From NCBI GenBank assembly GCA_003452965.1, contig DMMW01000035.1:534-58047 (forward strand): DNA of 57,514 nt, read 5' to 3'. The notes under the pieces were generated by a model. It searched no databases, had not been told where the DNA came from, and saw nothing but the letters and a program-made list of their open reading frames with translations. The stretch is from Elusimicrobiota bacterium. GTDB lineage: Bacteria; Elusimicrobiota; UBA8919. Positions 22,445 to 44,488 of the stretch are shown piece after piece. Numbering within the stretch: the stretch's first letter is position 1; every line of letters begins with the position of its first letter. The translations under genes and the position numbers were made by a program.

Positions 22445-22470
22445 TAAAAGATTTTAATAATACTAAATAC

Positions 22471-22491
22471 TATACCCTATACGCTATACAC
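22471..22491. repeat. 7-nt tandem repeat x3 (tataccc tatacgc tatacac)
   Basis: Read directly. On the minus strand it yields TAG every 7 nt. Confidence 0.65.
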
Positions 22492-22494
22492 TAA

Positions 22495-23814
<1,320 letters not shown>

Positions 23815-23899
23815 AATAGAAATATAAATTAAAATAAAGGTGTAATGACTTAATTTTAATTTAAACTTTTAACTTTTTATTTAATTTAACGGGGGAATT

Positions 23900-24832: not shown

Positions 24833-24970
24833 AGCTTCACCTATTAAATTATTGAATAATAAAGCGAAATTCTCCGAAGCATCACATAAATTTAGTATAG
24901 ATGAAATATAATAAGAAAGTATATTTTATATTACAATTTATGTTTTGTCAGGCGAAGGAGAATGATAATT

Positions 24971-26131: not shown

Positions 26132-26718
26132 GCGATAAAATAAAAATTGAATATAGCATAGTGATGAATTGGATAAAAGATGAATCATCCATTTTGGATC
26201 TTGGGTGTGGGGATGGTGAACTATTATCATTACTTGTTCAACAGAAAAAAGTAAGGGCACAGGGAATAGAATTAGATGAACAAGCGATTTATAAATGTGT
26301 TGAACGTGGAATAAGTGTTTTCCATGAGGACTTGGATAATGGACTTAAGGGGTATGCAGATAAATCATTTGATTATGTGGTTTTGTATCAGAGTTTGCAG
26401 CAAATAAAAAAACCGGATATAATATTACGAGATGCTATAAATGTCGGTAGAAAAGTAATAGTAGGTATACCGAATTTTGCATATTATAAAGCACGGGCAC
26501 AAATATTCTTTAAAGGGATAGTTCCGGTTACAACTTCATTGCCCTATGAATGGTATAATACTCCAAATCTCCATTTTTTGAGCATCTCTGATTTTATTAA
26601 TTACTGCAAAAACAAAGGTTTTAAAATAGAGAAGTCTATTTTTATAGGAGAAAAAAGCATAATAAAAATATTTCCAAATTTATTTGCACTAACAGGTATA
26701 TTTTTAATTTCCAAGTAA
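26128..26718 (+). CDS. metW: methionine biosynthesis protein MetW
   Basis: ATGA overlap with metX. The SAM-MTase-like motif is [12 protein letters not shown]. 196 aa and adjacent to metX, as is usual. Confidence 0.85.
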
Positions 26719-26819
26719 ATAAAAGTTAATCAAATAATTAAACATTATAAGATTAACAAATTTTTTTAACATATAAAGTCTACAAAGTTGATAGACAATA
26801 TGTATAATAAGGAGAAAAA

Positions 26820-27527
26820 ATGGGTATTTTAGAAGAAGTAAAAGGTGCGGATTTGAAAGCGTTGGTAGATGGTTTGAATTTTAAAGAGAAGATGGATAGG
26901 TCATTATCTTTAATTTCTGAAGCTTATAAGATATATGGTGATGGACTTATTGTTGCTAATAGTTTAGGAAAGGATTCAGTTGCTGTATGGGATTTAGTAA
27001 AAAGAGTCAGTCCTAAAATACAAGGGTTTATTGTAACTACAAGGTTTAAGCCAAAAGAAACCGTTGAATTTATGAATGAAACGGTTAAGAGATATCCAGA
27101 ATTAAAGATTTATAAAAATGATGAAATTATTTCGGATAATCTTTATGAAACAGATCCTCATAAATGCTGTGATATTTTAAAAGTTTTACCTACGAGAAAG
27201 GCGCTGCTTGAAATGGATGCTACGTGTTGGGTTACTGGATTAAGATGCACAGAAGGAAAAACTCGTACCGATTTCAAAGAAGTGGAAGAAAGGGATAAAG
27301 GGCTAATAAAATTAAATCCTATATTACTTTGGAAAGAAAGGGAAATATGGCAGTATCTTGCTTTATATGAGGTAAAGGTGAATCCATTATATAAATTGGG
27401 TTACCGTTCACTCGGTTGTCTCCCATGCACAAAAATAACAAATGAAGAGGATGAAAGAGCGGGCAGATGGGTAGGAACAAGCAAAATGGGTGGGGAATGC
27501 GGTATTCATACACGACCGTTAAAATGA
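26820..27527 (+). CDS. cysH: adenylylsulfate/phosphoadenylylsulfate reductase, Fe-S (APS-reductase) type
   Basis: PAPS_reduct fold. The cluster cysteines are CC (HKCCDIL) plus CxxC (GCLPCT), and the C-terminal catalytic motif is ECGIH. AAGGAG SD. Confidence 0.8.
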   Translation: MGILEEVKGADLKALVDGLNFKEKMDRSLSLISEAYKIYGDGLIVANSLGKDSVAVWDLVKRVSPKIQGFIVTTRFKPKETVEFMNETVKRYPELKIYKNDEIISDNLYETDPHKCCDILKVLPTRKALLEMDATCWVTGLRCTEGKTRTDFKEVEERDKGLIKLNPILLWKEREIWQYLALYEVKVNPLYKLGYRSLGCLPCTKITNEEDERAGRWVGTSKMGGECGIHTRPLK

Positions 27528-27533
27528 AACTCA

Positions 27534-28490
27534 ATGATTATTTTATTTTTAATTGTGATATTTTTTGCAATAAATATGGGTGCGAGTGGTGTGGCGCCGG
27601 CATTTGCAGTATCTTATTGTTCCAAAATAATAAAAACAAAATCAGTTATTTTGTTGTTTGGATTATTTGTTATTATTGGTGCAATATTATTGGGAAATAA
27701 TGTCACCATGACACTTAAGGGTAGAATACTACCAGAACAATTTGTTAATTTTAAGACAGCAATAATAATACTTTTTTCTGCCTCTTTTGGGTTATTTATT
27801 GCTAATATCTTTAAAGTGCCCCAGTCCACTTCATGGGCTACCGTCTTTTCAATAGTGGGAAGCGGTATTGCGATTGGGCATGTTAATTGGAGTAAATTCT
27901 TATTAATAATACCTTTTTGGATATTATTACCGCTTGTTTCTTATTTCCTAACGTTATTTTTTTATAAAAAAATTTATCCTCCAAAATTTAAAAATCTTTG
28001 GATCTATGAAAAAATATTTATTAATGAAAGAATATTAAAAAAACTATCCGTATTAGCAGGTTGCTATGTTGCATTTGCAATAGGTAGTAATAACGTTGCA
28101 AATGCAGTAGGTCCTTTAGTCGCAGGTGGTATTATTAAAAATATTTTTTCTGGATTATTTTTTATAGGATTGTTGTTTATGTTTGGAGCGATGTTTTGGG
28201 GTAAAAAAACTATGTGTACAATTGGCGAAGAAATAGTTCCTTTTGGATTGGTTACAGTTATTGTAGTCAATTTTATAACAGCAACACTTTTAATCTTTGC
28301 ATCGGCTTTAGGTATCCCTCAGTCACTTGTTCAACTTAATTCCGCTTCAATCTTTGCTATTTCACATACTAAGAATGGTTTCTATCAAACCGTTTCGCAC
28401 AAAGTAACCAAAAAGACATTTTTAGTATGGATTATTTCACCACTAATAGCATTTATTAGTTCATTTTTGCTTACAGGAGTAATAAGATGA
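27534..28490 (+). CDS. PiT-family (PHO4) anion permease, CysP-like candidate sulfate permease
   Basis: Polytopic, with the duplicated PiT signature (AINMGASGVAPAF and AIGSNNVANAVGPL). The gene order cysH then PiT mirrors the B. subtilis cysH-cysP arrangement. Confidence 0.7.
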   Translation: MIILFLIVIFFAINMGASGVAPAFAVSYCSKIIKTKSVILLFGLFVIIGAILLGNNVTMTLKGRILPEQFVNFKTAIIILFSASFGLFIANIFKVPQSTSWATVFSIVGSGIAIGHVNWSKFLLIIPFWILLPLVSYFLTLFFYKKIYPPKFKNLWIYEKIFINERILKKLSVLAGCYVAFAIGSNNVANAVGPLVAGGIIKNIFSGLFFIGLLFMFGAMFWGKKTMCTIGEEIVPFGLVTVIVVNFITATLLIFASALGIPQSLVQLNSASIFAISHTKNGFYQTVSHKVTKKTFLVWIISPLIAFISSFLLTGVIR

Positions 28491-28894
28491 TTTTGAGTAA
28501 AAAACAAATAAATTATATCATTGAACATGTAAAAAGAGAATATCCAAAGGAAGCATGTGGTATAATCGTAGGGACAAACTGCAAAATTAAAAAAATATAT
28601 AGAATGAAAAACATATCTGAAAAGCCGGAAATTTGCTATTTTATGGATATTAAAGAACAATTCAAAATATTTAAAAGAATAAGGAATCAAAGCTTAGAAC
28701 TTTTAGGCATTTACCATTCGCATACTCACAGTGAAGCGTATCCATCTTCACGTGATGTTGAAATGGCGTATTATGATAATGTAATTTATCTAATAGTATC
28801 TCTATCTAATTATGCAAAACCAAACATTAATGCTTATAAAATACGTTATGGTAAAATTAAAAAAGAACAAATAGAAGTCAGGGAGGTTTTATGA
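28487..28894 (+). CDS. JAMM/MPN+ metallopeptidase (Mec/HcyD/QbsD-like)
   Basis: The catalytic set is complete: the EACG Glu plus HSHTHSEAYPSSRD, which fits H-x-H-x7-S-x2-D. ATGA overlaps on both sides. Confidence 0.8.
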   Translation: MILSKKQINYIIEHVKREYPKEACGIIVGTNCKIKKIYRMKNISEKPEICYFMDIKEQFKIFKRIRNQSLELLGIYHSHTHSEAYPSSRDVEMAYYDNVIYLIVSLSNYAKPNINAYKIRYGKIKKEQIEVREVL

Positions 28895-29616
28895 AAAAAG
28901 TGTTTTTAATGATGTTTATCATCATTGGTACGGCAAAATTCAGTTATTGTGATTTTCGTTATTATGCATGGACATATCAATTTATGACTATGTTACCGGG
29001 AAAGACAGAGTTAGAGTTATATCACCGAATAGACCAAAATGATTTATCAGTGTCTGAAACAGCAAAATGGAAAAGACAAATCGAAATTGAAACAGGATTA
29101 ACTTCCCGTTGGGATTTTTCTTTTTATATGGTTGATAGTTTTTCAGCAGGAGCTGATGGAAAGGGAAGAATCAAATTTGAAGAGGTAAAACTTCGGACGA
29201 GGTATAAGCTTGCTAATAAAGGAGAGTTTTTTGTTGATCCTATTCTATATCTTGAGTATAAAATCCAAACAGATAGGAGTTATCCTGATAAATGGGAAAC
29301 AAAACTAATATTGGCTAAAGACATCAACGATTTGAATATAGCCATGAATGTTATTCCGGAAGAATATTATAAAACAGCGACAAAAGAAAAGGACTGGAAA
29401 GTAGAATATAGTGCTGGAATAAGTTATCCTATATTAAGTGATATTTTCCGAGCAGGGATAGAAGTTAAGGGTGATTTGAAAGATGATAAGCATTTACTTG
29501 GTCCTACAGTTTCTTTCAAAGGAAAAAGTATTTGGTCTGCTATTGGTTTTGTTTTTGGAGTTAACAAAGAATCTGATGACTTACAAGTACAATCAATAAT
29601 CGGTATAGTTTTTTAA
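28891..29616 (+). CDS. hypothetical outer-membrane beta-barrel protein
   Basis: Signal peptide, alternating hydrophobic beta-strand pattern throughout, and a C-terminal ...IIGIVF with terminal Phe. I recognise no family. Confidence 0.4.
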   Translation: MKKVFLMMFIIIGTAKFSYCDFRYYAWTYQFMTMLPGKTELELYHRIDQNDLSVSETAKWKRQIEIETGLTSRWDFSFYMVDSFSAGADGKGRIKFEEVKLRTRYKLANKGEFFVDPILYLEYKIQTDRSYPDKWETKLILAKDINDLNIAMNVIPEEYYKTATKEKDWKVEYSAGISYPILSDIFRAGIEVKGDLKDDKHLLGPTVSFKGKSIWSAIGFVFGVNKESDDLQVQSIIGIVF

Positions 29617-29636
29617 AAATTTAAAAAGTATAATAA

Positions 29637-30101
29637 ATGAAATTCTACCCGATATCTTTAAACTTAAAAGATAAAAAAGTTGTAATTATTGGTGGTGGTA
29701 AAATCGCCGAAAGAAAAATAAAAGGATTGGTTAAGTGCGATGCTAAAATTACTTTGGTTAGTCCGAATTTATCAAGAAACTTAGAAACAATAATTAGAAA
29801 ATATAAGATAAAATATTTCAAGAAAAAATATACATCATTTATTATAAAAAATCAGTTTTTGATTTTTGCATGTACATCAGATAATGATGTAAACGAAAAA
29901 ATTTTTAACGATGCTGAAAGGTTAGGAGTGCTGGTCAATGTATGCGATGATACGAAAAAATGCAGATTTATTGTTCCTGCGGTTATTAGAAAAAAGGGAA
30001 TTGTTATTTCTATATCTACGGATGGAAAGCGACCTGCACTTTCAAAAAAATTTAAAGAGGTTTTAAAAAATGAATTTGGAAATTTATGGGATAAATTATA
30101 A
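29637..30101 (+). CDS. sirC: precorrin-2 dehydrogenase / sirohydrochlorin ferrochelatase-like (siroheme synthase N-domain, short form)
   Basis: Rossmann motif VVIIGGGKIAERK and the ISTDGKRPALSKK block, as in the CysG N-domain, SirC and Met8. Only 154 aa. Confidence 0.7.
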   Translation: MKFYPISLNLKDKKVVIIGGGKIAERKIKGLVKCDAKITLVSPNLSRNLETIIRKYKIKYFKKKYTSFIIKNQFLIFACTSDNDVNEKIFNDAERLGVLVNVCDDTKKCRFIVPAVIRKKGIVISISTDGKRPALSKKFKEVLKNEFGNLWDKL

Positions 30102-30993
30102 ATTTTGTGATATAAAAGTAAGAGAAAAACACTATATTGATGCGAGAGAACGATATTTGTTGCTTGATAAATATAAATATAGTGGTTTCATACCTTCTGT
30201 AATAGTTTCAACATGCAATAGGACAGAATATTATTTTGATAAAAGGAATAATATTTATGAAAATATCGGCTTTGAAAATTTGAGTGGTATAGATGCGATA
30301 AGACATCTTTTTCGACTTACAAGCGGGATAGAATCACAAATTATAGGTGAGCCGGAAATATTATCACAGGTTAAACAAGCATATTATAATTCAGCCGAAC
30401 TTGGTATGACAAATGGTTTTTTTAATAAAATTTTTCTAAACGCAATAAAATTAGGTAAATATGTTCGTTCTCAAACAGGAATATCGGAGGGGAATATTTC
30501 TTTTGCAAGTATTATATTTAATAAATCAAGAGAGTTTTTTAAGGATATTTCCAATAAAAATATTTTTATTCTTGGTACCGGGGAAATGACAAAAAAAATT
30601 CTTAAGTATTTTTCTTCTGTAAGAACAAATATGCAAATTGTAAGTGGTAAAAATTATGATAAAGCCATTTTATTAGCAAGTGAGTGCAAAGTATTAATAA
30701 ATAAATTTAGCGAATTTAAAAATATAATAAATACCGCAGATATTATTATAACAGCAACTTCGTCACCACATATTTTGATAAGTGAAATAGATTTAATATA
30801 TGTAAAAAGACCATTATTGATTTTTGATTTATCAGTTCCAAGAAATGTGGATGAAGGAATAAAAAATGGATATGTATATCTCTATAATATTGACGATTTA
30901 AAAAAAATAAGCGAAAATAATCTTAATGAAAGAATTAAATATATTCCAGTTATTAAAGAGATTATTGAAAATGAAATCAATAAATTATTATAA
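30070..30993 (+). CDS. hemA: glutamyl-tRNA reductase (lacks the C-terminal dimerisation domain)
   Basis: Catalytic STCNRTEYYF, GESQI-like GIESQIIGEPEIL and NADPH motif LGTGEM. 307 aa versus a typical ~420 aa. Confidence 0.85.
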   Translation: MNLEIYGINYKFCDIKVREKHYIDARERYLLLDKYKYSGFIPSVIVSTCNRTEYYFDKRNNIYENIGFENLSGIDAIRHLFRLTSGIESQIIGEPEILSQVKQAYYNSAELGMTNGFFNKIFLNAIKLGKYVRSQTGISEGNISFASIIFNKSREFFKDISNKNIFILGTGEMTKKILKYFSSVRTNMQIVSGKNYDKAILLASECKVLINKFSEFKNIINTADIIITATSSPHILISEIDLIYVKRPLLIFDLSVPRNVDEGIKNGYVYLYNIDDLKKISENNLNERIKYIPVIKEIIENEINKLL

Positions 30994-31648
30994 AGAAATA
31001 AAAATTGGTGTCAGACCCTCTAATTTAGCAGTAAGACAAGCAGAAGAAATAATTGCTAAGTTAGAATTATTAGGTTTTGAGCGAGCAAGGTTTACAATAA
31101 AAAAATATCACACCGATGGCGATTTAGATAAAGAAACATCTATTTCAAAAATTGAAAGAAGTAATTTCTTTACCAATACGGTTGATAAAGCGGTTTTATC
31201 AGGAGATGTTGATTTTGGGGTTCATAGTGCTAAGGACTTACCGGATATTATTCCGAATGGTCTAAGGATTGCTTGTATAACAAAATCAATAAATAGACAT
31301 GATGCCCTTGTTTCAAGAGATAACTTAAAACTTGCAGAGTTACCGCTATATTCAAAAATAGGGGCAAGTAGCACACGTAGAAAAGAACAATTAAAAAAAT
31401 TCAGAAGTGATTTTGAAATAGTTGATATTCGTGGTAACATTGAAGAACGATTGGAGAAATTTGAAAAAAATAAATTAGATGGATTAATTGTTGCGACTTG
31501 TGCACTTGTAAGATTAGGACTTGTGGATAGAATAACTGCAGAAATTCCGTTTAATATTTTAGAACCGCATCCGTTGCAAGGTTCATTGGCTATTATTGTT
31601 AGAGAGGATAATTATGAATTTGCTGAAAAATTCAAAAAAATCAATTAA
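30971..31648 (+). CDS. hemC: hydroxymethylbilane synthase-like (domains 1-2 only)
   Basis: Contains VHSAKDLP, SSTRRKEQL and IRGNIEERL, which are substrate/cofactor-binding residues of HemC. It ends where E. coli HemC domain 3 would begin. The start is chosen at ATG 30971. Confidence 0.75.
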   Translation: MKSINYYKEIKIGVRPSNLAVRQAEEIIAKLELLGFERARFTIKKYHTDGDLDKETSISKIERSNFFTNTVDKAVLSGDVDFGVHSAKDLPDIIPNGLRIACITKSINRHDALVSRDNLKLAELPLYSKIGASSTRRKEQLKKFRSDFEIVDIRGNIEERLEKFEKNKLDGLIVATCALVRLGLVDRITAEIPFNILEPHPLQGSLAIIVREDNYEFAEKFKKIN

Positions 31649-32381
31649 ACATAAAGTTTATATTATTGGTGCAGGGCCCGGAGATACGGAACTTATTACA
31701 TTAAAGGGTATAAATGTCTTAAAAAAGGCCGAATGTGTAATTTACGATTACCTGGTTAATAAAGATATTTTGGAATATGTTCCAATAACTACAGAATTGA
31801 TAAATGCTGATAAAGCAAGAAACAGATATTTAGATAATTTTACGAAAGAACAGGATAAATTGAATGATTTAATTGTTCAAAAGGCAAAGGAATACAGAAC
31901 AGTTGTACGTCTTAAAAATGGCGATCCGACAATCTTTGGACGATTGAACGAAGAAATACAGTCACTTATTAAAAATAAAATTGATTTTGAAATTATTCCT
32001 GGTGTGACAACTGCTTCATCTGCTGCATCATTTTTAAAAATAGGACTGACTAAAACAAAAGTAGCGCCGATTGTTTCATTTATTGCTGGGCATGAAAATC
32101 CACTATCTAAAAATTCTATAATTGATTTTAGTAAATTATCTCAAAAATCAACACTTGTATTTTATATGGCTGTAGAAAATCTTAATAACATAGCAGAAAA
32201 GTTAATTGGAGAAGGATGGGAAAAAGATACTCCTTTTGCAATTGTAGAAAGTGTAGGATTCAATTACGAAAAGAAACATATAGGTAAATTAAAAAATATT
32301 AAAAAAATATCTAATGGTATTAAACCGCCTGCGGTATTATTGATAGGGGATGTGATAAATTATGCTATTAAGAAAAAATGA
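31614..32381 (+). CDS. cobA: uroporphyrinogen-III C-methyltransferase (SUMT)
   Basis: VYIIGAGPGDTELITLKG and VVRLKNGDP. The track start TTG 31596 is replaced by ATG 31614, which has AGAGAGGA upstream. Confidence 0.9.
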   Translation: MNLLKNSKKSIKHKVYIIGAGPGDTELITLKGINVLKKAECVIYDYLVNKDILEYVPITTELINADKARNRYLDNFTKEQDKLNDLIVQKAKEYRTVVRLKNGDPTIFGRLNEEIQSLIKNKIDFEIIPGVTTASSAASFLKIGLTKTKVAPIVSFIAGHENPLSKNSIIDFSKLSQKSTLVFYMAVENLNNIAEKLIGEGWEKDTPFAIVESVGFNYEKKHIGKLKNIKKISNGIKPPAVLLIGDVINYAIKKK

Positions 32382-33312
32382 AACTATAAGAAAGATGATT
32401 AGTGAAACACAACTTAAAGTTGAAAATCTAATTATGCCATTTTTTGTAACAGAGGGTATAAATATAAAAAAACCAATAAAATGTTTTCCGAAAATTTTTC
32501 ACTTGTCAATTGATAATCTGTTAAAAGAAATTGAAGAAATCGATAAACTTAATATTCCTGCGATTTTGATTTTTGGTGTTTCGGGTAAAAAGGATAAAAT
32601 AGGTTCTTATTCATGGAGTAAAAGTGGAATAGTTCAAAAAGCAGTAAAAGAAATAAAACTAAGATTTCCAGAAATTATATTAATCACAGATGTTTGTTTG
32701 TGTGGTTATAAATCTGATGGTCACTGTGGAATATTTAATGGAAGTGAGATTGATATAAATCTGACATTAAAATATTTATCAAAAATTGCTCTGTCACATT
32801 CTGATTATGGTGCTGACTTTGTGGCACCTTCTGCTATGATGGCAGGACAGGTAAAAGCAATAAGAAACGTTCTAAATAAAAATGGTTTTAATAACGTTGG
32901 AATATTGGATTATTCTGCGAAATTTGCCTCAAATTTTTATGGACCATTCAGAGAATCACTTAATAGTAATCCAAAATTCGGTGACAGGAAGATGTATCAA
33001 TTGGATTATAGCAATACAAATGCAGCGTTAAAAAGAATGGAAGAAAGTATTAAAGAAGGGGCTGATATTATAATGATAAAACCGGCTCTTGCATATCTAG
33101 ACATTATTAAAATTGCTAAACAAAAATTTAATGTTCCTATAGCTGCTTACAATGTTAGTGGTGAATATTCTATGGTTAAATTCGGTTCAGAAAAACATAT
33201 TTTCAATGAAAAAAATATAATTCTTGAAATTCTTACGGCGATAAAAAGGGCTGGTGCTGATTTAATAATAACTTATCATGCTAAGGATGTAGCAAGATGG
33301 TTAAAAAAATAA
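32362..33312 (+). CDS. hemB: porphobilinogen synthase (zinc-type)
   Basis: Zn site DVCLCGYKSDGHCG and Schiff-base Lys contexts (MIKPA, and SGEYSM nearby). Confidence 0.9.
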   Translation: MLLRKNETIRKMISETQLKVENLIMPFFVTEGINIKKPIKCFPKIFHLSIDNLLKEIEEIDKLNIPAILIFGVSGKKDKIGSYSWSKSGIVQKAVKEIKLRFPEIILITDVCLCGYKSDGHCGIFNGSEIDINLTLKYLSKIALSHSDYGADFVAPSAMMAGQVKAIRNVLNKNGFNNVGILDYSAKFASNFYGPFRESLNSNPKFGDRKMYQLDYSNTNAALKRMEESIKEGADIIMIKPALAYLDIIKIAKQKFNVPIAAYNVSGEYSMVKFGSEKHIFNEKNIILEILTAIKRAGADLIITYHAKDVARWLKK

Positions 33313-34511
33313 AATTGTTAAAAGAAATAAAAAAATATTTCTCAGGTGATGTAAATTCACCGGTAAGAAGTTTTAAATCGGTGGGTATGACCCCTATTAT
33401 TATAAAATCTGGAAGTGGTTCAAAAATTAAGACATATAATAGTAAAACATATATTGATTATTGCATGTCTTGGGGTGCCCTTATATTTGGACATTCAAAT
33501 ACTGACATAATCAGAGCTGTTAGAAATCAGTTAAGTTATGGGACAAGTTATGGTTTTACGAATAATTATGAAGTAGAACTTGCAAAAGAAATAAGCAAAG
33601 CATTACCTTCTGTAGAGAAAATTAGATTTGTAAATTCAGGGACTGAGGCAACAATGGGGGCAGTAAGAGTTGCCAGAAAGTTTACAAGCAGAAATAAAAT
33701 TTTGAAATTTGAAGGTTGTTATCATGGTAGTTCGGACTTATTATTAAGAACTGATAATAGTTTTATAGTTTCTTACAATGATTTAGAATCTGTTGAAAAA
33801 ACCGTTAAAAAACATTATAGAAGTATTGCTGCTGTTATTGTGGAACCGATTGCTGGTAATATGGGGGTTATATTACCAGATAAGAATTTTTTAATGGGTC
33901 TTAGAAATATATGTAACAGATACGAAATAATTTTGATATTTGATGAGGTGATAACTGGTTTTCGTATTCAATACGGTGGTGCACAGATAAAATATAATAT
34001 AAAACCCGATTTGACATGCTTGGGAAAGATTATAGGTGGTGGCTTTCCAGTCGGTGCTTTTGGTGGGAAAAAAGAAATTATGGAACTATTGGCACCATCA
34101 GGAGATTTGTATCAGGCAGGTACTTTTTCCGGAAATCCGATTTCTATGATAGCGGGCTTAAAGACATTACAGAAATTAGAATATGCAGATTACGGACTTA
34201 TAGAAGGTAGAACAGAATATTTATGCGATTTTATAGAAAATGAAGCGAAAAAAAATAGCGTTGATATTCAAATTAATAGAATTGGTTCTATGTTTTCTCT
34301 ATTTTTTATAAATAAAAAAGTTTATGATTATGTATCAGTAAAAAAACAAAATGTTAAAAAATTTAAAAAATTCTATAAATTACTTTTTAATAAAAGCGTA
34401 CTTTTTTCTCCATCACCATTTGAATCAAATTTTATTTCTTTCGCACACACACAAGAAGATATAGAAAAAACTATAAAAATATTTTCTTCTGTTTTGAGGA
34501 GGATTAGATGA
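33297..34511 (+). CDS. hemL: glutamate-1-semialdehyde 2,1-aminomutase
   Basis: Class-III aminotransferase, with NSGTEA, DEVITGFR and PLP-Lys context CLGKIIGGGFP. Confidence 0.9.
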   Translation: MVKKIKLLKEIKKYFSGDVNSPVRSFKSVGMTPIIIKSGSGSKIKTYNSKTYIDYCMSWGALIFGHSNTDIIRAVRNQLSYGTSYGFTNNYEVELAKEISKALPSVEKIRFVNSGTEATMGAVRVARKFTSRNKILKFEGCYHGSSDLLLRTDNSFIVSYNDLESVEKTVKKHYRSIAAVIVEPIAGNMGVILPDKNFLMGLRNICNRYEIILIFDEVITGFRIQYGGAQIKYNIKPDLTCLGKIIGGGFPVGAFGGKKEIMELLAPSGDLYQAGTFSGNPISMIAGLKTLQKLEYADYGLIEGRTEYLCDFIENEAKKNSVDIQINRIGSMFSLFFINKKVYDYVSVKKQNVKKFKKFYKLLFNKSVLFSPSPFESNFISFAHTQEDIEKTIKIFSSVLRRIR

Positions 34512-35431
34512 GTAGTTTCGACAAGTTAGATATAAAAAATAAAAAAGAACAGAAAAAATTAAATGTTGATTTTGCAGAACTTAAATCAGGTGGATTTATT
34601 AAACAAAATAAAAAGGACTTATTTACGGTTCGTTTGCGTGTACCAGGTGGGCGGATGCCTATAGAACGGTTAAACAAAATAATAAAAATCGCCCAAAAAT
34701 ATGGTAAAGCAAATTTCGTTCATTTTACCACCCGCCAATCGCTTGAAATTATTTCTATAAATATAAACGATTTTAATAAATTAAAAAGTGAATTAAAAAA
34801 AATAGGGCAACAAACTGCATCTTGTGGACCAAGAGTACGGGTTGCTACGGGTTGTGGGGGATGCGAATATAATGCAAGGGGTATTATTGATGCACAAAAA
34901 CTTGCATTACAGTCGGATAGGAAGTTTTTTGGAATTCCAACCATTCATGGGAAGTTTAAAATCTCATTTGCCGGCTGTCATTCGGATTGTACCAGGGCAA
35001 AAGGCGCAGATATCGGATTTATTGGCGAAATTGAACCGGGATGGAGTGAAAGAAAATGTATAGGTTGTGGATTATGTGCCAAAGCATGTTTGGAAGGTGC
35101 TATTATATCTGATAAAAAAACGGGAAAACCTGTCTATGATGCTTCAAAATGTATTTTTTGTGGCGATTGTATAAAAATATGTCCGACATCTGCTATGCAC
35201 GAAAAAAAAGTAGGTTGCGGATTATATGTCGGGGGAAAATGGGGGCGTCATCCAAGAATAGCAGATTTGATAACTCATCTTTTTCCTGCAAAAGATATAA
35301 TACCTGTTATCAAGAAAACGATAGATTGGTATATAAAAAATGGTAAAAAAAGAGAACGAATAGGAAATACAATTGATAGATTGGGTATTAAAAAATATAA
35401 AAACGAAATAAATTATAAAAGGAGTTACTAA
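34508..35431 (+). CDS. small siroheme-type sulfite reductase-like protein with inserted 2x[4Fe-4S] ferredoxin domain (AsrC/Dsr-like)
   Basis: NIR_SIR ferredoxin-like N-domain (RLRVPGGRM...L), Cys motifs TGCGGC and AGCHSDC, and two CxxCxxCxxxCP motifs (CIGCGLCAKAC, CIFCGDCIKICP). It sits immediately after the siroheme genes. Confidence 0.6.
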   Translation: MSSFDKLDIKNKKEQKKLNVDFAELKSGGFIKQNKKDLFTVRLRVPGGRMPIERLNKIIKIAQKYGKANFVHFTTRQSLEIISININDFNKLKSELKKIGQQTASCGPRVRVATGCGGCEYNARGIIDAQKLALQSDRKFFGIPTIHGKFKISFAGCHSDCTRAKGADIGFIGEIEPGWSERKCIGCGLCAKACLEGAIISDKKTGKPVYDASKCIFCGDCIKICPTSAMHEKKVGCGLYVGGKWGRHPRIADLITHLFPAKDIIPVIKKTIDWYIKNGKKRERIGNTIDRLGIKKYKNEINYKRSY

Positions 35432-35545
35432 AATATAAATTTCCATTAACGGAAAGAATGAGAAGATTGCTTATAGTTTAGAATTGGTAATGTCAAAAAT
35501 ATGCCAATTTTTGACAGAACGAGTATTTTAAGGGAAAAGAAAGGT

Positions 35546-35938
35546 ATGATTGAAAATTCGTCACCGATAATTAAGATACTACTAAAAATAGTTGGAACTA
35601 TATTTGTGGGACTTGCGATTCTTGGCATATTTCTGCCTCTTTTACCAACAACTCCTTTTCTAATACTTGCTGCTATTTGTTATGCAAAAAGTTCCTCAAA
35701 ACTTTATAACTGGCTCTTGAATAATAAGTATTTAGGAGCTTATATCAGAAATTATTATGAAGGTAAAGGTATACCGCTTGCTACAAAAATCTTAACGATT
35801 ATATTTTTAATATTAACAATAGGTTATACATCAATATTTACAATTTCCGTATGGTGGGCTAGGATATGTTTGTGGCTTATAGCTGTTGGGGTTAGTATCC
35901 ATATTCTCTCTTTCCCAACATTGAAAAATAAAAAATAG
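35546..35938 (+). CDS. DUF454 (YbaN-like) inner-membrane protein
   Basis: [24 protein letters not shown] is the YbaN signature. The start is chosen at ATG 35546. Confidence 0.65.
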
Positions 35939-35948
35939 GAGGCATTTC

Positions 35949-37070
35949 ATGGCAATAAAAATATCTATTAATGGTAAGAGTGAAAAGTTCAAAAATAGAT
36001 TAACAGTTGAAAATTTACTCAAAATTAAAAAGATTAGAAAAGAAGTTGTGACTGTAGAATTAAACAATAAAATAATTTCAAGAGAAAAATATTCTATCGC
36101 AGTTTTAAAAGACGGTGATTTGCTTGAATTTATTTATTATATGGGTGGTGGTGCTTGCAAGAGTATACTTAGTTTAATAGGGAACACGCCTCTCGTAAAG
36201 TTGAATAATATTGTTTCGGAAGATTCTGCCGAGATATTTGCAAAAGTAGAATATTTCAATCCCGGCGGTTCCATAAAAGATAGAATATGTTTGGCTATCA
36301 TTGAAGATGCTGAGAAAAAAGGTAATTTAAAGATAGGCGGAACAATAATTGAGCCAACCAGTGGGAATACCGGAATTGGTTTAGCGATGATTGCTGCTAT
36401 TAAAAAATATAGATGTATTCTTGTAATGCCTGAATCAATGTCATTGGAAAGAATATATATACTGAAATCTTTTGGTGCTGAAGTAATTTTAACATCAGCT
36501 AACAAAGGGATGACAGGTGCAATTAAAAAAGCTGAGGAACTTAATAAAAAAATACCGAATAGTTTTATTCCGCAACAGTTTGATAATCCCGCGAATCCGG
36601 AGATACATAGAAAAACAACCGCAGTAGAGATTTTGTCTCAAACCGAAGGAAAAATAGATGCGTTTGTTGCCGGGGTTGGAACTGGAGGAACGATAACGGG
36701 TGTAGGTGAGGTTTTAAAAGGAAAAAATCCAAATATAAAAATTATTGCAGTTGAGCCTGAAACATCTGCGGTATTATCAGGTCAAAAACCCGGTCCTCAT
36801 AAAATTCAGGGTATAGGTGCCGGATTTATCCCTAAAATACTAAATAGAAAAATATTAGATGAAATAATAACGGTGAGTGACGATAATGCATTCAATACTG
36901 CAAAACTCATGGCAACAAAGGAAGGGCTTTTTGTAGGAATTTCTTCTGGGGCTGCTGTACATGCATCATTATTAGTTGCCAAGAATTTAGGAAAGGGCAA
37001 AAGAGTAGTTACAATACTACCGGATACCGGTGAAAGATATTTCAGTGTTGAACAATATTTTAAAGGATAA
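35949..37070 (+). CDS. ThiS-like ubiquitin-fold sulfur carrier (aa 1-68, ending ...YYMGGG) fused in frame to a cysteine synthase (CysK/CysM, aa 69-373)
   Basis: Strong AGGAGG SD. The N-terminal 68 aa align by eye to B. subtilis-type ThiS, including the terminal GGG. Codons ATG GGT GGT GGT GCT TGC at 36141-36158 continue without a stop into ...[11 protein letters not shown]..., then SIKDR (PLP Lys), TSGNTG and GVGTGGT. Confidence 0.85.
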
Positions 37071-37073
37071 TGT

Positions 37074-37310
37074 ATGGAAAAACAAATTAAAATAGCAAAA
37101 AAATTGGATTTAACAGGTGTTATATGTCCCACTAATTTTGTAAAAACAAAACTTGCTCTGGAAGATTTGAAAAAGGGGCAGATATTGGAGATAATACTTG
37201 ATGATGGTGAACCAATAAGGAATGTGCCGAGAAGTATTAAAGAAGATGGACATAAAATAATAAAAGTTGAAAATATCAAAAACAAATTTAAAATTTTAAT
37301 TAAAAAATGA
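37074..37310 (+). CDS. TusA/SirA-family sulfurtransferase
   Basis: 78 aa. LDLTGVICPTNFVKTKLAL carries the conserved Cys-Pro active-site context. Confidence 0.7.
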   Translation: MEKQIKIAKKLDLTGVICPTNFVKTKLALEDLKKGQILEIILDDGEPIRNVPRSIKEDGHKIIKVENIKNKFKILIKK

Positions 37311-37320
37311 GGTGAATAAT

Positions 37321-38541
37321 ATGTCATTTGCAAAATCATTAAAATGTCGCGAATGCGGTAGGATTTACGAAAAAAAACCTATATATGTTTGTGAATATTG
37401 TTTCGGCCCTTTAGAAGTTGTATATGATTATAAAAAGATTAAGAAAGTGTTAACAAAAGAAAGGATTATAGCCCGTAAAGAAAATCTTTGGAGATACAAA
37501 GAACTTTTACCTGTTGACCATGAACCAACAGTTGGTCTGAACAGTGGTTTTACACCGTTATTTGAGGCAAAAAATTTATCAAAAAAACTTAATTGTAAAA
37601 AAATATTTATTAAAGATGATTCAGTGAATCATCCTACACTTTCATTTAAAGACAGAGTAGTTGCTGTTGCACTCTCAAAAGCCAAAGAATTTGGTTTTAA
37701 AACCGTTGCTTGTGCTTCAACCGGAAACCTTGCCAATTCAGTGAGTAGTCATTCTAAAAGTGCAGGATTCAATTGTTATGTTTTTATTCCTGCAGATCTT
37801 GAAAAAAGCAAGATAATATCTTCTTTAATTTATGGAGTTAATCTTGTGGCAATAGAAGGTAATTACGATGATGTTAATAGATTATGCGGTGAAATTGCGT
37901 CAAAATATAAGTGGGCGTTTGTAAATATAAATTTAAGGCCATATTATGCTGAAGGTTCAAAAACATATGGATTTGAAATTATAGAACAACTTGGCTGGAG
38001 AGCGCCTCAAAATATAATAATACCCGCTGCATCCGGTTCACTTCTTACAAAAGTTTATAAAGGAATAAAAGAATTTGAGCAAATTGGGTTAATAAAAAAA
38101 TCTAACACAAAATTTCATATTGCACAAGCGAGTGGTTGTTCACCAATTGTCACTGCATTTAAAAAGAAATCTGAAATTATAAAACCTATTAAACCAAATA
38201 CAATTGCAAAATCATTAGCGATAGGTAATCCGGCAGATGGTTTCTATGCGATTGATATAATCAGAAAAACTAACGGTTATGGAGAGGTTGCTACAAATGA
38301 TGAAATCGTTGAAGGAATAAAGTTATTAGCCGAGACCGAAGGTATTTTTACAGAAACAGCCGGTGGTGTTGTGGTGGCAGTTTGTAAAAAACTTGTTGAA
38401 CAGAGAAAAATAAAAAGGAACGAAGAAATCGTTATCTCCATAACAGGTAATGGTCTAAAAACGCAAGAAGCTGTTGAAGGTAAAACAAGTAAATTAATAA
38501 AAATAAAGCCCAATATTCAATCATTTGAAAAAATTTTATAG
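37321..38541 (+). CDS. threonine-synthase-like PLP enzyme with N-terminal zinc ribbon (candidate carrier-dependent homocysteine/thio-amino-acid synthase)
   Basis: Zinc ribbon CRECG...CEYC, PLP Lys in HPTLSFKDR, and SGNLA-like STGNLA. The track start GTG 37312 is replaced by ATG 37321, which has GAGGTG upstream. Confidence 0.8.
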   Translation: MSFAKSLKCRECGRIYEKKPIYVCEYCFGPLEVVYDYKKIKKVLTKERIIARKENLWRYKELLPVDHEPTVGLNSGFTPLFEAKNLSKKLNCKKIFIKDDSVNHPTLSFKDRVVAVALSKAKEFGFKTVACASTGNLANSVSSHSKSAGFNCYVFIPADLEKSKIISSLIYGVNLVAIEGNYDDVNRLCGEIASKYKWAFVNINLRPYYAEGSKTYGFEIIEQLGWRAPQNIIIPAASGSLLTKVYKGIKEFEQIGLIKKSNTKFHIAQASGCSPIVTAFKKKSEIIKPIKPNTIAKSLAIGNPADGFYAIDIIRKTNGYGEVATNDEIVEGIKLLAETEGIFTETAGGVVVAVCKKLVEQRKIKRNEEIVISITGNGLKTQEAVEGKTSKLIKIKPNIQSFEKIL

Positions 38542-38554
38542 GAGGAAAAATCAA

Positions 38555-38830
38555 ATGGCTATAAAAGTGAGAATACCAACTCCATTGCAAAAATTGACGG
38601 ATAAAAAAGCAGAAGTAAAATGTTCGGGAAAAACGGTTATTGAATTGATTGCTATTCTGGACAAAAAATATCCCGGTATCAAAGAACGGCTTTGTGATGA
38701 AAAAGGAAATATAAGACGGTTTATCAATATTTTTGTAAATGAACAAGATATAAGATTTTTGAAGGGTAAGAATTCTAAACTCAAAGATGGAGATGATGTA
38801 TCAATAATTCCCGCAATAGCAGGAGGGTAA
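38555..38830 (+). CDS. CysO/MoaD-family sulfur carrier protein ending in free Gly-Gly
   Basis: 91 aa after a GGAGG SD. VRIPTPL...YPGIKERL...RRFINIFVNEQDIRF...DGDDVSIIPAIAGG-stop closely parallels M. tuberculosis CysO. Confidence 0.85.
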   Translation: MAIKVRIPTPLQKLTDKKAEVKCSGKTVIELIAILDKKYPGIKERLCDEKGNIRRFINIFVNEQDIRFLKGKNSKLKDGDDVSIIPAIAGG

Positions 38831-38836
38831 AGGGCT

Positions 38837-39652
38837 ATGTTTAAATTAACTGATGAACAAATTGAAAGATATTCAAGGCAGATAATCCTTCCCGAAATTG
38901 GTGGTAAAGGGCAAGAAAAACTGCTTAAAGCAAAAGTACTTATAATCGGATGTGGTGGACTCGGTTCGCCGTGTGCTTTTTATCTTGTTGCAGCCGGTAT
39001 TGGTAAAATTGGGCTTATAGATAGTGATAATGTTGAATTAAATAATCTACAGAGACAAATATTGCATTCTACAAGGACCGTTGGTATTCCAAAAGTTGAA
39101 TCAGCAAAAGACATACTTTCAAACATTAATCCTAATATTGATATAGTTGTTCATAAATTACGGCTTACTTCAGAAAACATTTTAAGTATTATTAGAAACT
39201 ATGATGTGATAATAGATGGAAGTGATAATTTCCCTACACGGTATCTTGTAAATGATGCTTGTGTTTTGTTAAAAAAACCACTAATTCACGCAGGTATTTT
39301 AAGATTTGACGGTCAGGCGACAACGATTATTCCATATAAAAGTCCTTGTTATAGATGTTTATTTCCAGCACCACCGCCACCGGGGACGGTACCTTCATGT
39401 CAGGAGGCAGGTATATTAGGTGTCGTTGCAGGAACTCTCGGACTTATTCAAGCAACTGAAGCATTGAAATATATTTTATCAGTAGGTGAATTACTAATAG
39501 GAAAATTGCTTATTTTCAATGCTTTGGAAATGAGTTTTAGAACATTAAAAATACAAAGAGATAAAAAATGTCCGATTTGTGGAAACAAACCTACAATAAA
39601 AAAACTTATTGACTATGAAGAATTTTGCCAACTAAGAAAGAATAAAACATAA
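38837..39652 (+). CDS. ThiF/MoeB/HesA-family E1-like adenylyltransferase (no rhodanese domain)
   Basis: RYSRQI, the GCGGLG nucleotide loop and two CxxC pairs (CYRC, CPIC). 271 aa. Confidence 0.85.
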   Translation: MFKLTDEQIERYSRQIILPEIGGKGQEKLLKAKVLIIGCGGLGSPCAFYLVAAGIGKIGLIDSDNVELNNLQRQILHSTRTVGIPKVESAKDILSNINPNIDIVVHKLRLTSENILSIIRNYDVIIDGSDNFPTRYLVNDACVLLKKPLIHAGILRFDGQATTIIPYKSPCYRCLFPAPPPPGTVPSCQEAGILGVVAGTLGLIQATEALKYILSVGELLIGKLLIFNALEMSFRTLKIQRDKKCPICGNKPTIKKLIDYEEFCQLRKNKT

Positions 39653-39727: not shown

Positions 39728-39838
39728 AAGGGAGGTTGTATTCGGTCTGAGAGTTCCGTAAAGTAATCGGAAGACCTTGCTCTACCTTGAAGTAACGGTG
39801 GACGTAACCTGATATGGATAATGCCAGCGGAGGGATGT
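39728..39838 (+). promoter_or_regulatory. TPP (THI-box) riboswitch
   Basis: CUGAGA at 39747-39752 lies inside a GGUC...GACC helix with a UUCCG/CGGAA P3 hairpin. The near-invariant ACCUGAUAUGGAUAAUGCCAGCG at 39807-39829 is followed by GAGGGA. Confidence 0.85.
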
Positions 39839-39876
39839 GATAACTTGTTTGATGTATGATTCATCTTACAATTTTC

Positions 39877-39936: not shown

Positions 39937-41604
39937 ATGATTATTCTATTAATAATATTACTTTTTGTGCCGGTCTCTTTTGCTGAGGAAATACCAACCA
40001 TATCAATTTCAATAGAAAAAGAAATGATTTCTAATAATAATGTAGTTATTAAACCTGATAAAGTTTCCAATTCATTAAATCAATCACTATTAAACAACAA
40101 TATTGATATACAAAGAAATACGGTGCATCCGAATATTTCTCTGAAAGGCTCCACTTTTCAACAATCATCTATCTATATAGATGGTGTTAAAATAGATGAT
40201 CCGCAGACAGCACACCACAATATGAATATACCGGTAACAATTAATGATATAGAAAGAATAGAAATTTTAAATAACAAGGGCTTATCAGGTGCATTGAATA
40301 TTATTACAAAAAAACCTGATGATGCAATAATTGCAGAAATTTCAGTAGGTGATTATGCTAATAAAAACGGAAAGGTCACAGCATCACGCAAATGGAAAAA
40401 TATAGCTAATAGGCTATCGATAGAAAAAAATATTTCAGAAGGTTACTCATTCGATACTGATTTTGATATAACAAATATTTTTAATCAATTTGAATGGTCT
40501 TTAAATAATTTGGCAACAGGTCTTTCTTTCGGTTATTTAAAAAAGGACTTTGGAGCAAAAGGTTTTTATGCTAATTTCCCTTCCTATGAATGGACTGAAA
40601 CATATTTTTCAAAAGTTTATTTAAATTATATGTATCACAGTTTTAATATTAAACCGGAATTTCAATGGAGAGGAAATAAGGATGAATTCGAATTGGATAT
40701 AACAAAACCGGGTTGGTCTTTCAACGAACATAGAACAGATGTTTATACTTCCCAATTAGAAATTTCTAAGAATAATTATACAGGTGGTACAAGTATTTCT
40801 AAAGAAAAAATAGATAGTTCAAACCTCGGTAATCATTCAAGAGATATTTATGGGTTATGGAGTAATTATAAACATATATTCTCAGGGAAAATTAATACAA
40901 CTGCAGGATTACAACTTGATAAATATTCTAATTATTCAGTTCTATCACCCTCAATATATGCCGAATATTACCAATTAGAAAAAATAAAAATTCATTCTAT
41001 TTACAGAAAATCTGTGAGGCAACCATCATTTACTGAGCTTTATTATAACGACAAAGCGAATGTTGGGAATCCTAATTTGGATTTTGAAAAAGCAACTTTG
41101 TATGAAATGGGTATTAATTATAATTATTTTATATTAAATCTTTTTGTGCGTGATGAAAAAGATATTATTGATTGGATAAAACAAAATCAAGCAGATGCGC
41201 AATGGTTAGCAACAAATATCGGTAAGGCAAAATTTTATGGATATGAAATAGGCTCTACAAAGGATTTTAATAAGATATCAATATCTTTAAAATATCAATT
41301 TACTAATTCCTCAAAGGATGCAGATTTTATATCAAAGTATGCTTTGCGTTATACAAATCACATATTAACTTCAGCGGTTTCATATTCATTGCCTTTAAAT
41401 ATTAAACATCAGGTATCCGGGCTTTATAAGAAGAGAATATCCGGCGAAGAATATTTTGTATTAGACACTAAATTTACTAAAGATTTTTCAATAGGTGAGT
41501 ATTTTGTAAAAATAGATAATATACTGAATAGAGAATACTTTGAAATACCATTTGTTGAAATGCCTCCAAGAATCATTTATGCAGGTCTGAATTTTCACAT
41601 ATAA
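39937..41604 (+). CDS. small TonB-dependent receptor (candidate thiamine/precursor uptake)
   Basis: AGGAGG SD and a signal peptide. The plug motif is ISLKGSTFQQSSIYIDGVKIDDP and the C-terminal region has a beta-barrel pattern. It lies directly downstream of the TPP riboswitch. Confidence 0.75.
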   Translation: MIILLIILLFVPVSFAEEIPTISISIEKEMISNNNVVIKPDKVSNSLNQSLLNNNIDIQRNTVHPNISLKGSTFQQSSIYIDGVKIDDPQTAHHNMNIPVTINDIERIEILNNKGLSGALNIITKKPDDAIIAEISVGDYANKNGKVTASRKWKNIANRLSIEKNISEGYSFDTDFDITNIFNQFEWSLNNLATGLSFGYLKKDFGAKGFYANFPSYEWTETYFSKVYLNYMYHSFNIKPEFQWRGNKDEFELDITKPGWSFNEHRTDVYTSQLEISKNNYTGGTSISKEKIDSSNLGNHSRDIYGLWSNYKHIFSGKINTTAGLQLDKYSNYSVLSPSIYAEYYQLEKIKIHSIYRKSVRQPSFTELYYNDKANVGNPNLDFEKATLYEMGINYNYFILNLFVRDEKDIIDWIKQNQADAQWLATNIGKAKFYGYEIGSTKDFNKISISLKYQFTNSSKDADFISKYALRYTNHILTSAVSYSLPLNIKHQVSGLYKKRISGEEYFVLDTKFTKDFSIGEYFVKIDNILNREYFEIPFVEMPPRIIYAGLNFHI

Positions 41605-42683: not shown

Positions 42684-42840
42684 TATTTATTTAATTTTTT
42701 ACCGCAAGTTTTTTTGATTTCAAGTGTTTATAATAGTAGAAGTATGGAGTAAAATAAATATGACCGCTTACGCGTTGATTCGCCATTCGCCAACTGGTGA
42801 AGGCGGACAAGAAATCGTTGGTGGGGAAGGAGGATATGAA

Positions 42841-44070: not shown

Positions 44071-44074
44071 TAAA

Positions 44075-44440: not shown

Positions 44441-44488
44441 ATGTAAGAAATTATTTTTTTAGCGAGTATTTTAGTATATAATTAAAAT

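Follow-up and report, generated by a model that had tools for sequence, protein, structure and literature searches.

We analyzed a 57,514-nucleotide (nt) stretch of an Elusimicrobiota genome (contig DMMW01000035.1; the whole stretch is called the window here) that carries, at positions 26820 to 39652, 17 genes for sulfate reduction, siroheme synthesis, and sulfur transfer by ubiquitin-like (Ubl) carrier proteins. The original prediction, made from the sequence alone, read these genes as one co-directional supercluster. All 17, on the + strand and in the order it had described, were recovered from open reading frame (ORF) coordinates, as were its overlaps (4 nt at 28487, 28891, and 34508; 32 nt at 30070; 16 nt at 33297); the remaining junctions measure −68 to +20 nt, with a 69-nt gap 5′ of the DUF454 gene as the sole exception. 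Its family calls were borne out by Pfam and NCBIfam profile searches of the window proteins, with catalytic motifs intact, save for a 241-amino-acid (aa) protein. The genes, with their profile matches, are as follows.

26820 to 27527, + strand: cysH, Fe-S sulfonucleotide reductase of the adenosine 5′-phosphosulfate (APS) type (PAPS_reduct, 136 bits; NF002537, 167 bits, above cutoff)
27534 to 28490, + strand: PiT-family permease, probable CysP-like sulfate permease (PHO4, 155 bits)
28487 to 28894, + strand: JAMM/MPN+ metalloprotease (Prok-JAB, 80 bits)
28891 to 29616, + strand: 241-aa protein with a signal-peptide-like N terminus and a C-terminal Phe (no Pfam or NCBIfam match)
29637 to 30101, + strand: sirC N-domain, 154 aa (NAD_binding_7 only)
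30070 to 30993, + strand: hemA, 307 aa, without the dimerization domain (Pfam)
30926 or 30971 to 31648, + strand: hemC, ending short of domain 3 (Pfam)
31596 to 32381, + strand: cobA, without a hemD module (Pfam)
32362 to 33312, + strand: hemB (Pfam)
33297 to 34511, + strand: hemL (Pfam)
34508 to 35431, + strand: small siroheme sulfite reductase with an inserted 2x[4Fe-4S] ferredoxin domain (NIR_SIR_ferr, NIR_SIR, and two Fer4)
35501 to 35938, + strand: DUF454/YbaN membrane protein, a sporadic accessory ending 10 nt before ThiS::CysK (DUF454, 127 bits)
35949 to 36152, + strand: ThiS-type sulfur carrier domain of ThiS::CysK, aa 1 to 68, ending in an invariant MGGG (ThiS, 30 bits)
36153 to 37070, + strand: CysK-type O-acetylserine sulfhydrylase domain of ThiS::CysK (PALP; TIGR01139 cysK, 456 bits, cutoff 351)
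37074 to 37310, + strand: TusA/SirA sulfurtransferase with a CP motif at residue 18 (TusA, 79 bits)
37312 to 38541, + strand: ThrC-like pyridoxal phosphate (PLP) enzyme with an N-terminal CxxC...CxxC zinc ribbon (TIGR00260, 299 bits; PRK08197, 306 versus a cutoff of 303)
38555 to 38830, + strand: MoaD/CysO-type carrier (MetO-like) ending AIAGG (ThiS family, 60 bits; TIGR01687, 54 bits, above cutoff)
38837 to 39652, + strand: E1-like adenylyltransferase of the ThiF/MoeB family (ThiF, 288 bits; PRK05690, 301, cutoff 266)

The closest relatives of the window are Elusimicrobia metagenome-assembled genomes (MAGs). Another Elusimicrobiota MAG (L002) carries cysK-metY-cysH-PiT-JAMM-sirC-hemA-hemC-cobA-hemB-hemL-SiR-ThiS::CysK-TusA-ThrC-like-carrier-E1 (SiR, sulfite reductase) at 48 to 84% identity. 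Two metagenome contigs read Rrf2-cysH-PiT-JAMM-hemA-hemC-(methyltransferase)-cobA::hemD-hemB-hemL-ThiS::CysK-SiR-TusA-ThrC-like-carrier-E1-NIL (L084) and Rrf2-cysH-Sat-PiT-JAMM-SiR-DUF454::ThiS::CysK-TusA-ThrC-like-carrier-E1-NIL (L086); their fusion proteins, 54 to 56% identical to that of the window over the ThiS domain, came up alongside sequences named Candidatus Omnitrophota in the same search. A core module of ThiS plus CysK, ThrC-like enzyme plus carrier, E1, and JAMM was found in dozens of Nitrospirota loci and in an uncultured bacterium (L093), as well as in Planctomycetia (L090 and L091), where no E1 lay within the stretch fetched. The Nitrospirota loci (L003, L005, and L095 to L160), including many Nitrospira MAGs, have the order ThiS-CysK-E1-ThrC-like-carrier-E1-JAMM. 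Because gene order is conserved across phyla, the cluster goes beyond chance. Comparing the neighborhoods of the ThiS::CysK and ThrC-like/CysO pairs had been proposed as a check on the original prediction, and the two proved to be linked in L002, L084, and L086.

At positions 35949 to 37070, the first carrier and its presumed partner enzyme form a single protein. Searching a large protein collection with the full-length sequence recovered the ThiS-plus-PALP architecture in 119 of the best 120 protein clusters (67 to 86% identity), and an 85-aa query of ThiS plus linker gave no match in this word-indexed search. Where homologues carry a name, it is just "cysteine synthase" or "cysteine synthase A." All 119 of 119 fusion proteins have the junction M65-G66-G67-G68 without variation, and the CysK domain starts within ~4 residues of it. 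Of 60 genomic loci compared, 13 entries have the ThiS module fused to CysK and 47 have it as a separate upstream ORF. Two of these separate ORFs end exactly at MGGG, most continue for 1 residue, and some continue for 2 to 27; the graded ends thus describe a continuous series from free carrier to capped carrier to carrier fused to enzyme. In an AlphaFold model of the window protein (mean predicted local distance difference test [pLDDT] score of 85.6), residues 1 to 63 adopt a beta-grasp fold and the CysK fold is confident, whereas junction residues 64 to 71 are modeled as disordered (pLDDT < 50). Since the Gly-Gly motif of the fused carrier is internal, cleavage would be needed to expose it. 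Adenylation of a sulfur carrier requires a free C-terminal glycine, and the cluster itself encodes a JAMM protease; the simplest reading of the sequences, the model, and the parallels with known systems is therefore that the JAMM would cleave this carrier-enzyme precursor at the junction. The original prediction had recognized the carriers and overlooked this apparent need for proteolytic release.

The enzyme half of the fusion is a CysK rather than a CysM: the CysM models score below their cutoffs (TIGR01138, 312 versus 394; PRK11761, 295 versus 413), and the top Foldseek matches are Staphylococcus aureus CysK and Mycobacterium tuberculosis CysK1. In a simple neighbor-joining tree without support values, the carrier-linked CysKs of all phyla form one clade apart from ordinary CysKs, which include the window's own cysK. 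An apparent exception from Myxococcota (L046) is itself an Rrf2-CysK-E1-MoaD-like carrier locus. This grouping of sequences suggests that carrier-linked CysKs are a specialized subfamily. A triple fusion, DUF454(YbaN)::ThiS::CysK (514 aa), occurs in P0073, P0077, and L086 (6301 to 7845). DUF454 is not a conserved member of the cluster. Its fusion or adjacency to the carrier hints at a membrane-tethered carrier or at a functional link for an uncharacterized membrane family.

Alternatively, the ThiS domain might never leave CysK, serving instead as a degenerate beta-grasp module for docking or regulation (for example, by recruiting the E1 or the other carrier), in which case CysK would use sulfide and only the MoaD-like protein would be a true carrier. 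The CysK domain is indeed a canonical OASS-A, 60% identical to the housekeeping CysK, and the Pfam score of the ThiS domain is low. We consider this improbable, however, given a junction that is both invariant and modeled as disordered and a carrier that stands free, ending at or just past MGGG, in 47 loci. In Nitrospirota, moreover, a dedicated E1 follows the ThiS-CysK pair, and the second carrier shows similar capping and fusion.

That second carrier, for which we correct the likely gene start to 38555, lies 13 nt downstream of the ThrC-like gene. It is unrelated to the ThiS-type domain save for the C-terminal motif, here the terminal Gly-Gly of AIAGG that is available for adenylation, and its nearest solved relatives are 4n6e_B (E = 5e-20) and M. 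tuberculosis CysO (3dwg_C; E = 1e-18). Across relatives of the ThrC-like enzyme (53 to 88% identity), a MoaD-like carrier gene follows directly downstream in 77/80 loci, and one of the three exceptions is truncated by a contig end. Represented among them are Nitrospirota, Aquificota, Planctomycetia, Acidimicrobiia, Thermodesulfobacteriota, and archaea. Thirty-nine of the carriers end exactly in GG; others bear tails of 1 to 35 residues or a fused NIL domain. The NIL fusion, placed after the GG, was found in some Planctomycetia and Nitrospirota (L090, L091, L016, and L009; Pfam, 57 to 63 bits), and a stand-alone NIL gene follows the E1 in L002 (13695 to 13937), L084 (14601 to 14840), and L086 (10769 to 11023). 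Sequences of Sat, HemD, HemC domain 3, and NIL from relatives were searched against the window and, on longer public contigs, the 10 kb beyond either end; no NIL was found in this range.

A ThrC homologue beside a CysO-like carrier is the arrangement of MetM and MetO. These proteins of Streptomyces albulus (Hasebe et al. 2024, as summarized in bioRxiv 10.1101/2024.10.14.618325 and PMC12172450) are reported to form a thiocarboxylate route from O-phosphohomoserine to homocysteine, and the preprint notes that MetM is commonly misannotated as threonine synthase. The window shares with the S. albulus system a ThrC homologue followed directly by a CysO-like carrier and a predicted requirement for a Mec-type protease and a MoeZ-type E1. 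Unlike S. albulus, it has no S-adenosylmethionine (SAM) riboswitch, and the pair sits inside a sulfate reduction and siroheme cluster, sharing its E1 and JAMM with the cysteine module. We propose that the ThrC-like/carrier pair matches MetM/MetO, an assignment made from genomic context and literature. Consistent with this, the loci with the pair include an Aquifex aeolicus MAG, further Aquificota, and Acidimicrobiia, which are relatives of two species, Aquifex aeolicus and Acidimicrobium ferrooxidans, for which an earlier paper could name no homocysteine route (PMC5764234).

Two carriers are encoded with a single E1 and a single JAMM in the window, as had been claimed, with both enzymes confirmed by family searches and intact motifs. 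The E1 has the nucleotide-binding GCGGLG and two zinc-type CxxC motifs and is without a rhodanese domain. The JAMM motif is complete (E22 and H77xHx7SxxD, residues 77 to 90), and its nearest solved relative is 2kks (E = 1e-18). Rhodanese-less E1s in such operons are always accompanied by SirA (Iyer et al. 2006; PMC1779556), and we propose that TusA acts as a persulfide relay in place of an E1 rhodanese domain. Nitrospirota have two E1 genes, one for each carrier/enzyme pair, that form sister clades (E1a and E1b) in a simple tree. The single E1s of the window, L002, L084, L086, and L093 branch outside this duplication, and one E1 for two carriers is therefore probably the ancestral state; the same tree suggests that the E1 was duplicated in Nitrospirota and then specialized for each carrier.

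The ThrC-like protein could instead be an ordinary threonine synthase, as its NCBIfam matches would name it (TIGR00260 and, 3 bits above cutoff, PRK08197), with the carrier, E1, and JAMM serving molybdopterin, thiamin, tRNA thiolation, or SAMP-like conjugation. Such roles are echoed in matches of the carrier to moaD_arch and SAMP1 and of the E1 to MoeB and UbaA, and a desampylase model matches the JAMM below its cutoff. Yet moaE, thiG, thiH, and ttuA are all absent from the window, the best solved relatives of the carrier are of the CysO type, and the adjacency of the ThrC-like gene and carrier holds across many phyla in an enzyme family whose MetM members are routinely misannotated. A shift of the carrier, JAMM, or E1 calls to the synthesis of molybdopterin or thiamin had been named as an outcome that would speak against the original prediction; no family search produced it. 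A thiamin or molybdopterin role for the E1 and carriers was rejected for want of partner genes. The thiamin pyrophosphate (TPP) riboswitch-like element after the E1 (described below) faces a TonB-dependent receptor, not the cluster. We regard this alternative as very unlikely.

Other genes of the cluster would supply sulfide for these carriers. As had been predicted from its CC and CxxC motifs, CysH has the ligands of an Fe-S reductase (CC116 and C200LPC203) and the catalytic ECGIH226; the APS subtype is assigned from these motifs, because the APS_reductase model TIGR02055 scores 137 against a cutoff of 235. The only NCBIfam match of the PiT permease is the Bacillus CysP-type model SulfPermCysPBac (232 bits, below the cutoff of 400). 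The sulfite reductase scores below every NCBIfam equivalog cutoff for AsrC, DsrAB, and CysI (best, TIGR02912 with 125 bits versus 324), and its nearest solved relative is the C-terminal half of the F420-dependent sulfite reductase (Fsr) 7np8 (E = 7e-33). From its sequence, it is classed as a small stand-alone siroheme reductase of the general Fsr C-terminal-half kind. Bacillus subtilis likewise combines cysH with cysP, sat, cysC, and siroheme genes in its cysH operon. The window resembles that operon in that cysH shares a unit with siroheme genes and is followed by a sulfate permease of the PiT family; it differs in having no sat or cysC, in encoding a route that starts from glutamyl-tRNA, and in the attached Ubl carrier system. 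The absence of sat, cysC, hemD, and a separate chelatase had been noted for the window and extends to the 10 kb past either end. In L086, Sat sits within the cluster.

The siroheme branch is built from short proteins. HemC (porphobilinogen deaminase) has merely 225 to 240 aa, depending on its start, and aligns to residues 3 to 217 of 312-aa enzymes; missing here is domain 3, with the cysteine to which the dipyrromethane cofactor is bound. The original prediction had passed over this. Short forms are common among the nearest representatives at 50% identity, many of which are 212 to 245 aa long or are fusions with a C-terminal HemC module, and in an alignment of the short forms no cysteine is conserved among them. 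Neither HemD nor HemC domain 3 had a match in the window or within 10 kb of either end. A complete pathway of full-length enzymes is therefore not encoded here: hemD and a separate chelatase are absent, and HemC, HemA, and SirC are truncated. The same gene set is present in L002, and in L084 cobA is fused to hemD.

Immediately upstream, as the original prediction had stated, lies an Rrf2-metY-cysK-metX-metW group, each with Pfam matches; the last four are direct-sulfhydrylation genes.

21963 to 22409, + strand: Rrf2-family regulator, probable regulator of the unit (Rrf2, 120 bits; likely start corrected to 21963)
22519 to 23814, + strand: metY (Cys_Met_Meta_PP, 464 bits)
23900 to 24832, + strand: housekeeping-type cysK, grouping with ordinary CysKs in the tree (PALP, 262 bits)
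24962 to 26131, + strand: metX (Abhydrolase_1)
26128 to 26718, + strand: metW (MetW, 226 bits)

Rrf2 lies immediately 5′ of cysH in L084 and L086, and an Rrf2 gene also adjoins the carrier-linked CysK of L046. Since it directly precedes cysH in the first two, the functional unit probably begins at Rrf2, includes the met genes, and spans ~21963 to 39652, with the E1 marking the 3′ end of the sulfur cluster. In favor of an operon, the ORFs mostly overlap or touch and no terminator-like site falls between genes. The scans themselves carry no signal, with terminator-like sites fewer than chance and promoter-like sites at chance (100 found versus 100 expected), so that operon structure cannot be read from them. 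No Rfam model matched the window at gathering thresholds, and no SAM or other riboswitch was found ahead of Rrf2, metY, or cysH.

The supercluster might be a row of separately transcribed operons (the met genes; cysH-PiT-JAMM-heme-SiR; and DUF454-ThiS::CysK-...-E1) that are mechanistically uncoupled, with regulation by Rrf2 as the most they have in common. Nearly all window genes are on the + strand, with only three real genes on the − strand across 57.5 kb, and hence the shared strand, although correctly reported, is uninformative. Gaps of 101 and 69 nt carry promoter-like hexamers (e.g., 26779 to 26808) and could hold internal promoters, and the 241-aa protein, DUF454, NIL, sat, and sirC vary among relatives. 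Against this, the order cysH-PiT-JAMM...SiR/ThiS::CysK-TusA-ThrC-like-carrier-E1 is kept in L002, L084, and L086, many ORFs overlap, terminator-like sites are absent between genes, and the JAMM lies in the first block while its presumed substrates lie in the last. We judge separate, uncoupled operons to be unlikely; homology and context instead favor a coupled unit that may be a single transcript.

The locus is, in our view, likely to be a conserved assimilatory sulfur unit that feeds cysteine and homocysteine through protein carriers. Homology and gene context suggest the following route. Sulfate would enter via the PiT/CysP-like permease, be converted to APS by an ATP sulfurylase (Sat) encoded elsewhere, and be reduced to sulfite by the Fe-S-type CysH. 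The small siroheme reductase, with its cofactor from the embedded hemA-L-B-C/cobA/sirC genes, would then produce sulfide. The single E1 would adenylate the C-terminal glycine of both beta-grasp carriers, and sulfide or TusA persulfide would turn the acyl-adenylates into thiocarboxylates. Cutting ThiS::CysK after the invariant MGGG, the JAMM would yield carrier and enzyme in a 1:1 ratio. CysK could condense O-acetylserine with ThiS-COSH, and the MetM-type ThrC-like enzyme could form homocysteine from O-phosphohomoserine and the MoaD/CysO-type carrier. Finally, the same JAMM may hydrolyze the carrier-cysteine and carrier-homocysteine adducts, freeing both amino acids.

Several observations weigh against this scheme. 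A complete free-sulfide route (metX/metW/metY and cysK) lies just upstream, and the carriers may therefore be redundant or conditional; the fused CysK, canonical and close to its housekeeping paralogue, could itself use free sulfide. Genes that the scheme requires, among them sat and hemD, are not local, and cysE and thrB, like sat, were not found in the window or its flanks. The siroheme branch is assembled from unusually short enzymes, and its completeness is uncertain because HemC lacks domain 3 and the cofactor cysteine. The possible internal promoters and the neighbor-joining trees without support values count on the same side.

A more far-reaching proposal is tentative, and we put it a little short of even. 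ThiS::CysK may be a prokaryotic counterpart of ubiquitin fusion precursors, with the carrier made as a polyprotein together with its client enzyme, released by the cluster's JAMM, and later recycled by that protease from the cysteine and homocysteine adducts. Its clade may be a group of otherwise canonical O-acetylserine sulfhydrylases that came to depend on a protein thiocarboxylate. Widespread uncultured lineages of Elusimicrobiota, Omnitrophota, Nitrospirota, and Planctomycetia would then assimilate sulfur into cysteine and homocysteine largely without free sulfide, through one E1 acting on two unlike carriers.

The kind of system is already known, from CysO/CysM in 2005, the genomic neighborhood in 2006, HcyS in 2011, and MetM/MetO in 2024. 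Neighborhood type 4e of Iyer et al. 2006 (PMC1779556) comprises ThiS/MoaD, JAB, a rhodanese-less E1, SirA/TusA, a 3′-phosphoadenosine 5′-phosphosulfate (PAPS) reductase, a sulfite reductase, a sulfate/sulfite transporter, and O-acetylhomoserine sulfhydrylase. The window likewise has the rhodanese-less E1, TusA, PAPS reductase, sulfite reductase, and transporter. In that catalog, however, ThiS is fused to sulfite reductase and not to CysK, and neither a ThrC-like partner nor an embedded tetrapyrrole pathway is included. The Wolinella succinogenes HcyS/HcyD/HcyF/MetY system, which is cited in PMC8191291, PMC5764234, and PMC6225789, likewise combines its sulfite reductase with a Ubl carrier, a JAMM, and an E1 free of rhodanese in a cluster for sulfate assimilation, with thiocarboxylate sulfur passed to a PLP enzyme. 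The window differs in having two carriers, in the PLP partners CysK and the ThrC-like enzyme, and in a cap that for one carrier is a whole enzyme and not one residue. Krishnamoorthy and Begley reportedly described in 2011 that HcyS is made with a one-residue C-terminal cap, which the JAMM HcyD removes. MetY is present in the window too.

In the M. tuberculosis CysO/CysM/Mec/MoeZ pathway (Burns et al. 2005; PMC3227635), cysteine is likewise made from a carrier thiocarboxylate and released by a JAMM (Mec), and CysO is a relative of the window's MoaD-like carrier. Unlike that pathway, the window has a CysK-type partner in place of CysM, a short ThiS-type carrier fused to it, and a rhodanese-less E1 with TusA. 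A parallel to the fusion itself is M. tuberculosis MoaX, a fused MoaD-MoaE in which cleavage after Gly-Gly is required for activity and the protease is unidentified (PMC4326299). MoaX also joins an N-terminal carrier to its partner enzyme. It belongs to another pathway, molybdopterin synthesis; in the window, a candidate protease, the JAMM, is encoded within the cluster. The linkage claimed by the original prediction stands and its interpretation is supported, with channeling of sulfur through thiocarboxylates a proposal, while its view of the merged unit as new was overstated, given the neighborhood type cataloged in 2006 and MetM/MetO in 2024.

We could not find descriptions of a ThiS carrier that is joined to a canonical CysK or that precedes one in capped form, of the carrier-linked CysK clade, of cysteine and homocysteine modules under one E1 and one JAMM, or of the embedded tetrapyrrole route; for the ThiS-CysK fusion, the literature searched had limited coverage, and its silence is weak evidence. 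To our knowledge, biochemical proof that cysteine and methionine synthesis can depend on sulfur carriers comes from only a few organisms. The locus suggests that a combined cysteine and homocysteine version is common both among large uncultured phyla and among nitrite oxidizers of the genus Nitrospira, where such genes are annotated merely as "cysteine synthase A," "threonine synthase," or "MoeB." In metabolic reconstruction, genes of the cluster would fill gaps in the methionine and cysteine pathways. The fusions of a carrier to an enzyme or to another domain offer a testable case of JAMM processing that bears on the origin of ubiquitin-style precursor processing. For enzymology, the locus raises the issue of how the active site of a canonical CysK would accommodate a thiocarboxylate borne by a protein.

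The 241-aa protein had been called an outer-membrane barrel. It may be an outer-membrane channel. Its sequence family comprises ~39 clusters that lack a Pfam domain and derive from MAGs of Endomicrobiia, Omnitrophica, and unclassified bacteria. A place as a conserved part of the cluster was rejected: it is absent from L002, L084, and L086, and its homologues occur in unrelated contexts, alone or beside other transport genes (ArsP permease and Feo), so that it is probably a general channel inserted here.

The 284-nt spacer between the E1 and the TonB-dependent receptor (39937 to 41604) contains a TPP riboswitch-like element at 39734 to 39852 (+ strand; 28.9 bits). L002 has a homologous element at 14015 to 14152 (48.8 bits); both score below the Rfam gathering score of 54.3 and share an enlarged P3 or an extra hairpin. 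Minimum free energy folding of the leader was uninformative (z = −0.14). The element points to regulation of the outer-membrane receptor by thiamin and delimits the sulfur cluster on its 3′ side.

Before the Rrf2 start, positions 21860 to 21935 hold a GC-rich, structured-looking segment in an AT-rich genome, GTTCTGT...CCGCCACTGAGC...GGCGAGACCTCGCCCGAAGGGCGGGC...ACAGAAC, with no Rfam match. The Rrf2-metY spacer (22410 to 22518) opens with G-rich heptad-like repeats (GGGATAGGGATTAGGGGTTAGAGGTTAGGGATTAG) and continues with CTATAC-type repeats; these may represent an operator or some other signal. An AbiEii-type nucleotidyltransferase toxin gene (20869 to 21675) immediately precedes the Rrf2 leader, with a partner ORF upstream (20238 to 20867) that has no Pfam match. 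Downstream of the receptor, an extracytoplasmic function (ECF) sigma factor gene (41980 to 42537) precedes a co-directional metal efflux cluster (42724 to 50405) encoding a YHS/cupredoxin protein, an HMBD protein, an outer-membrane factor, a CusB-like adaptor with HMBD, and a CusA/AcrB-type pump.

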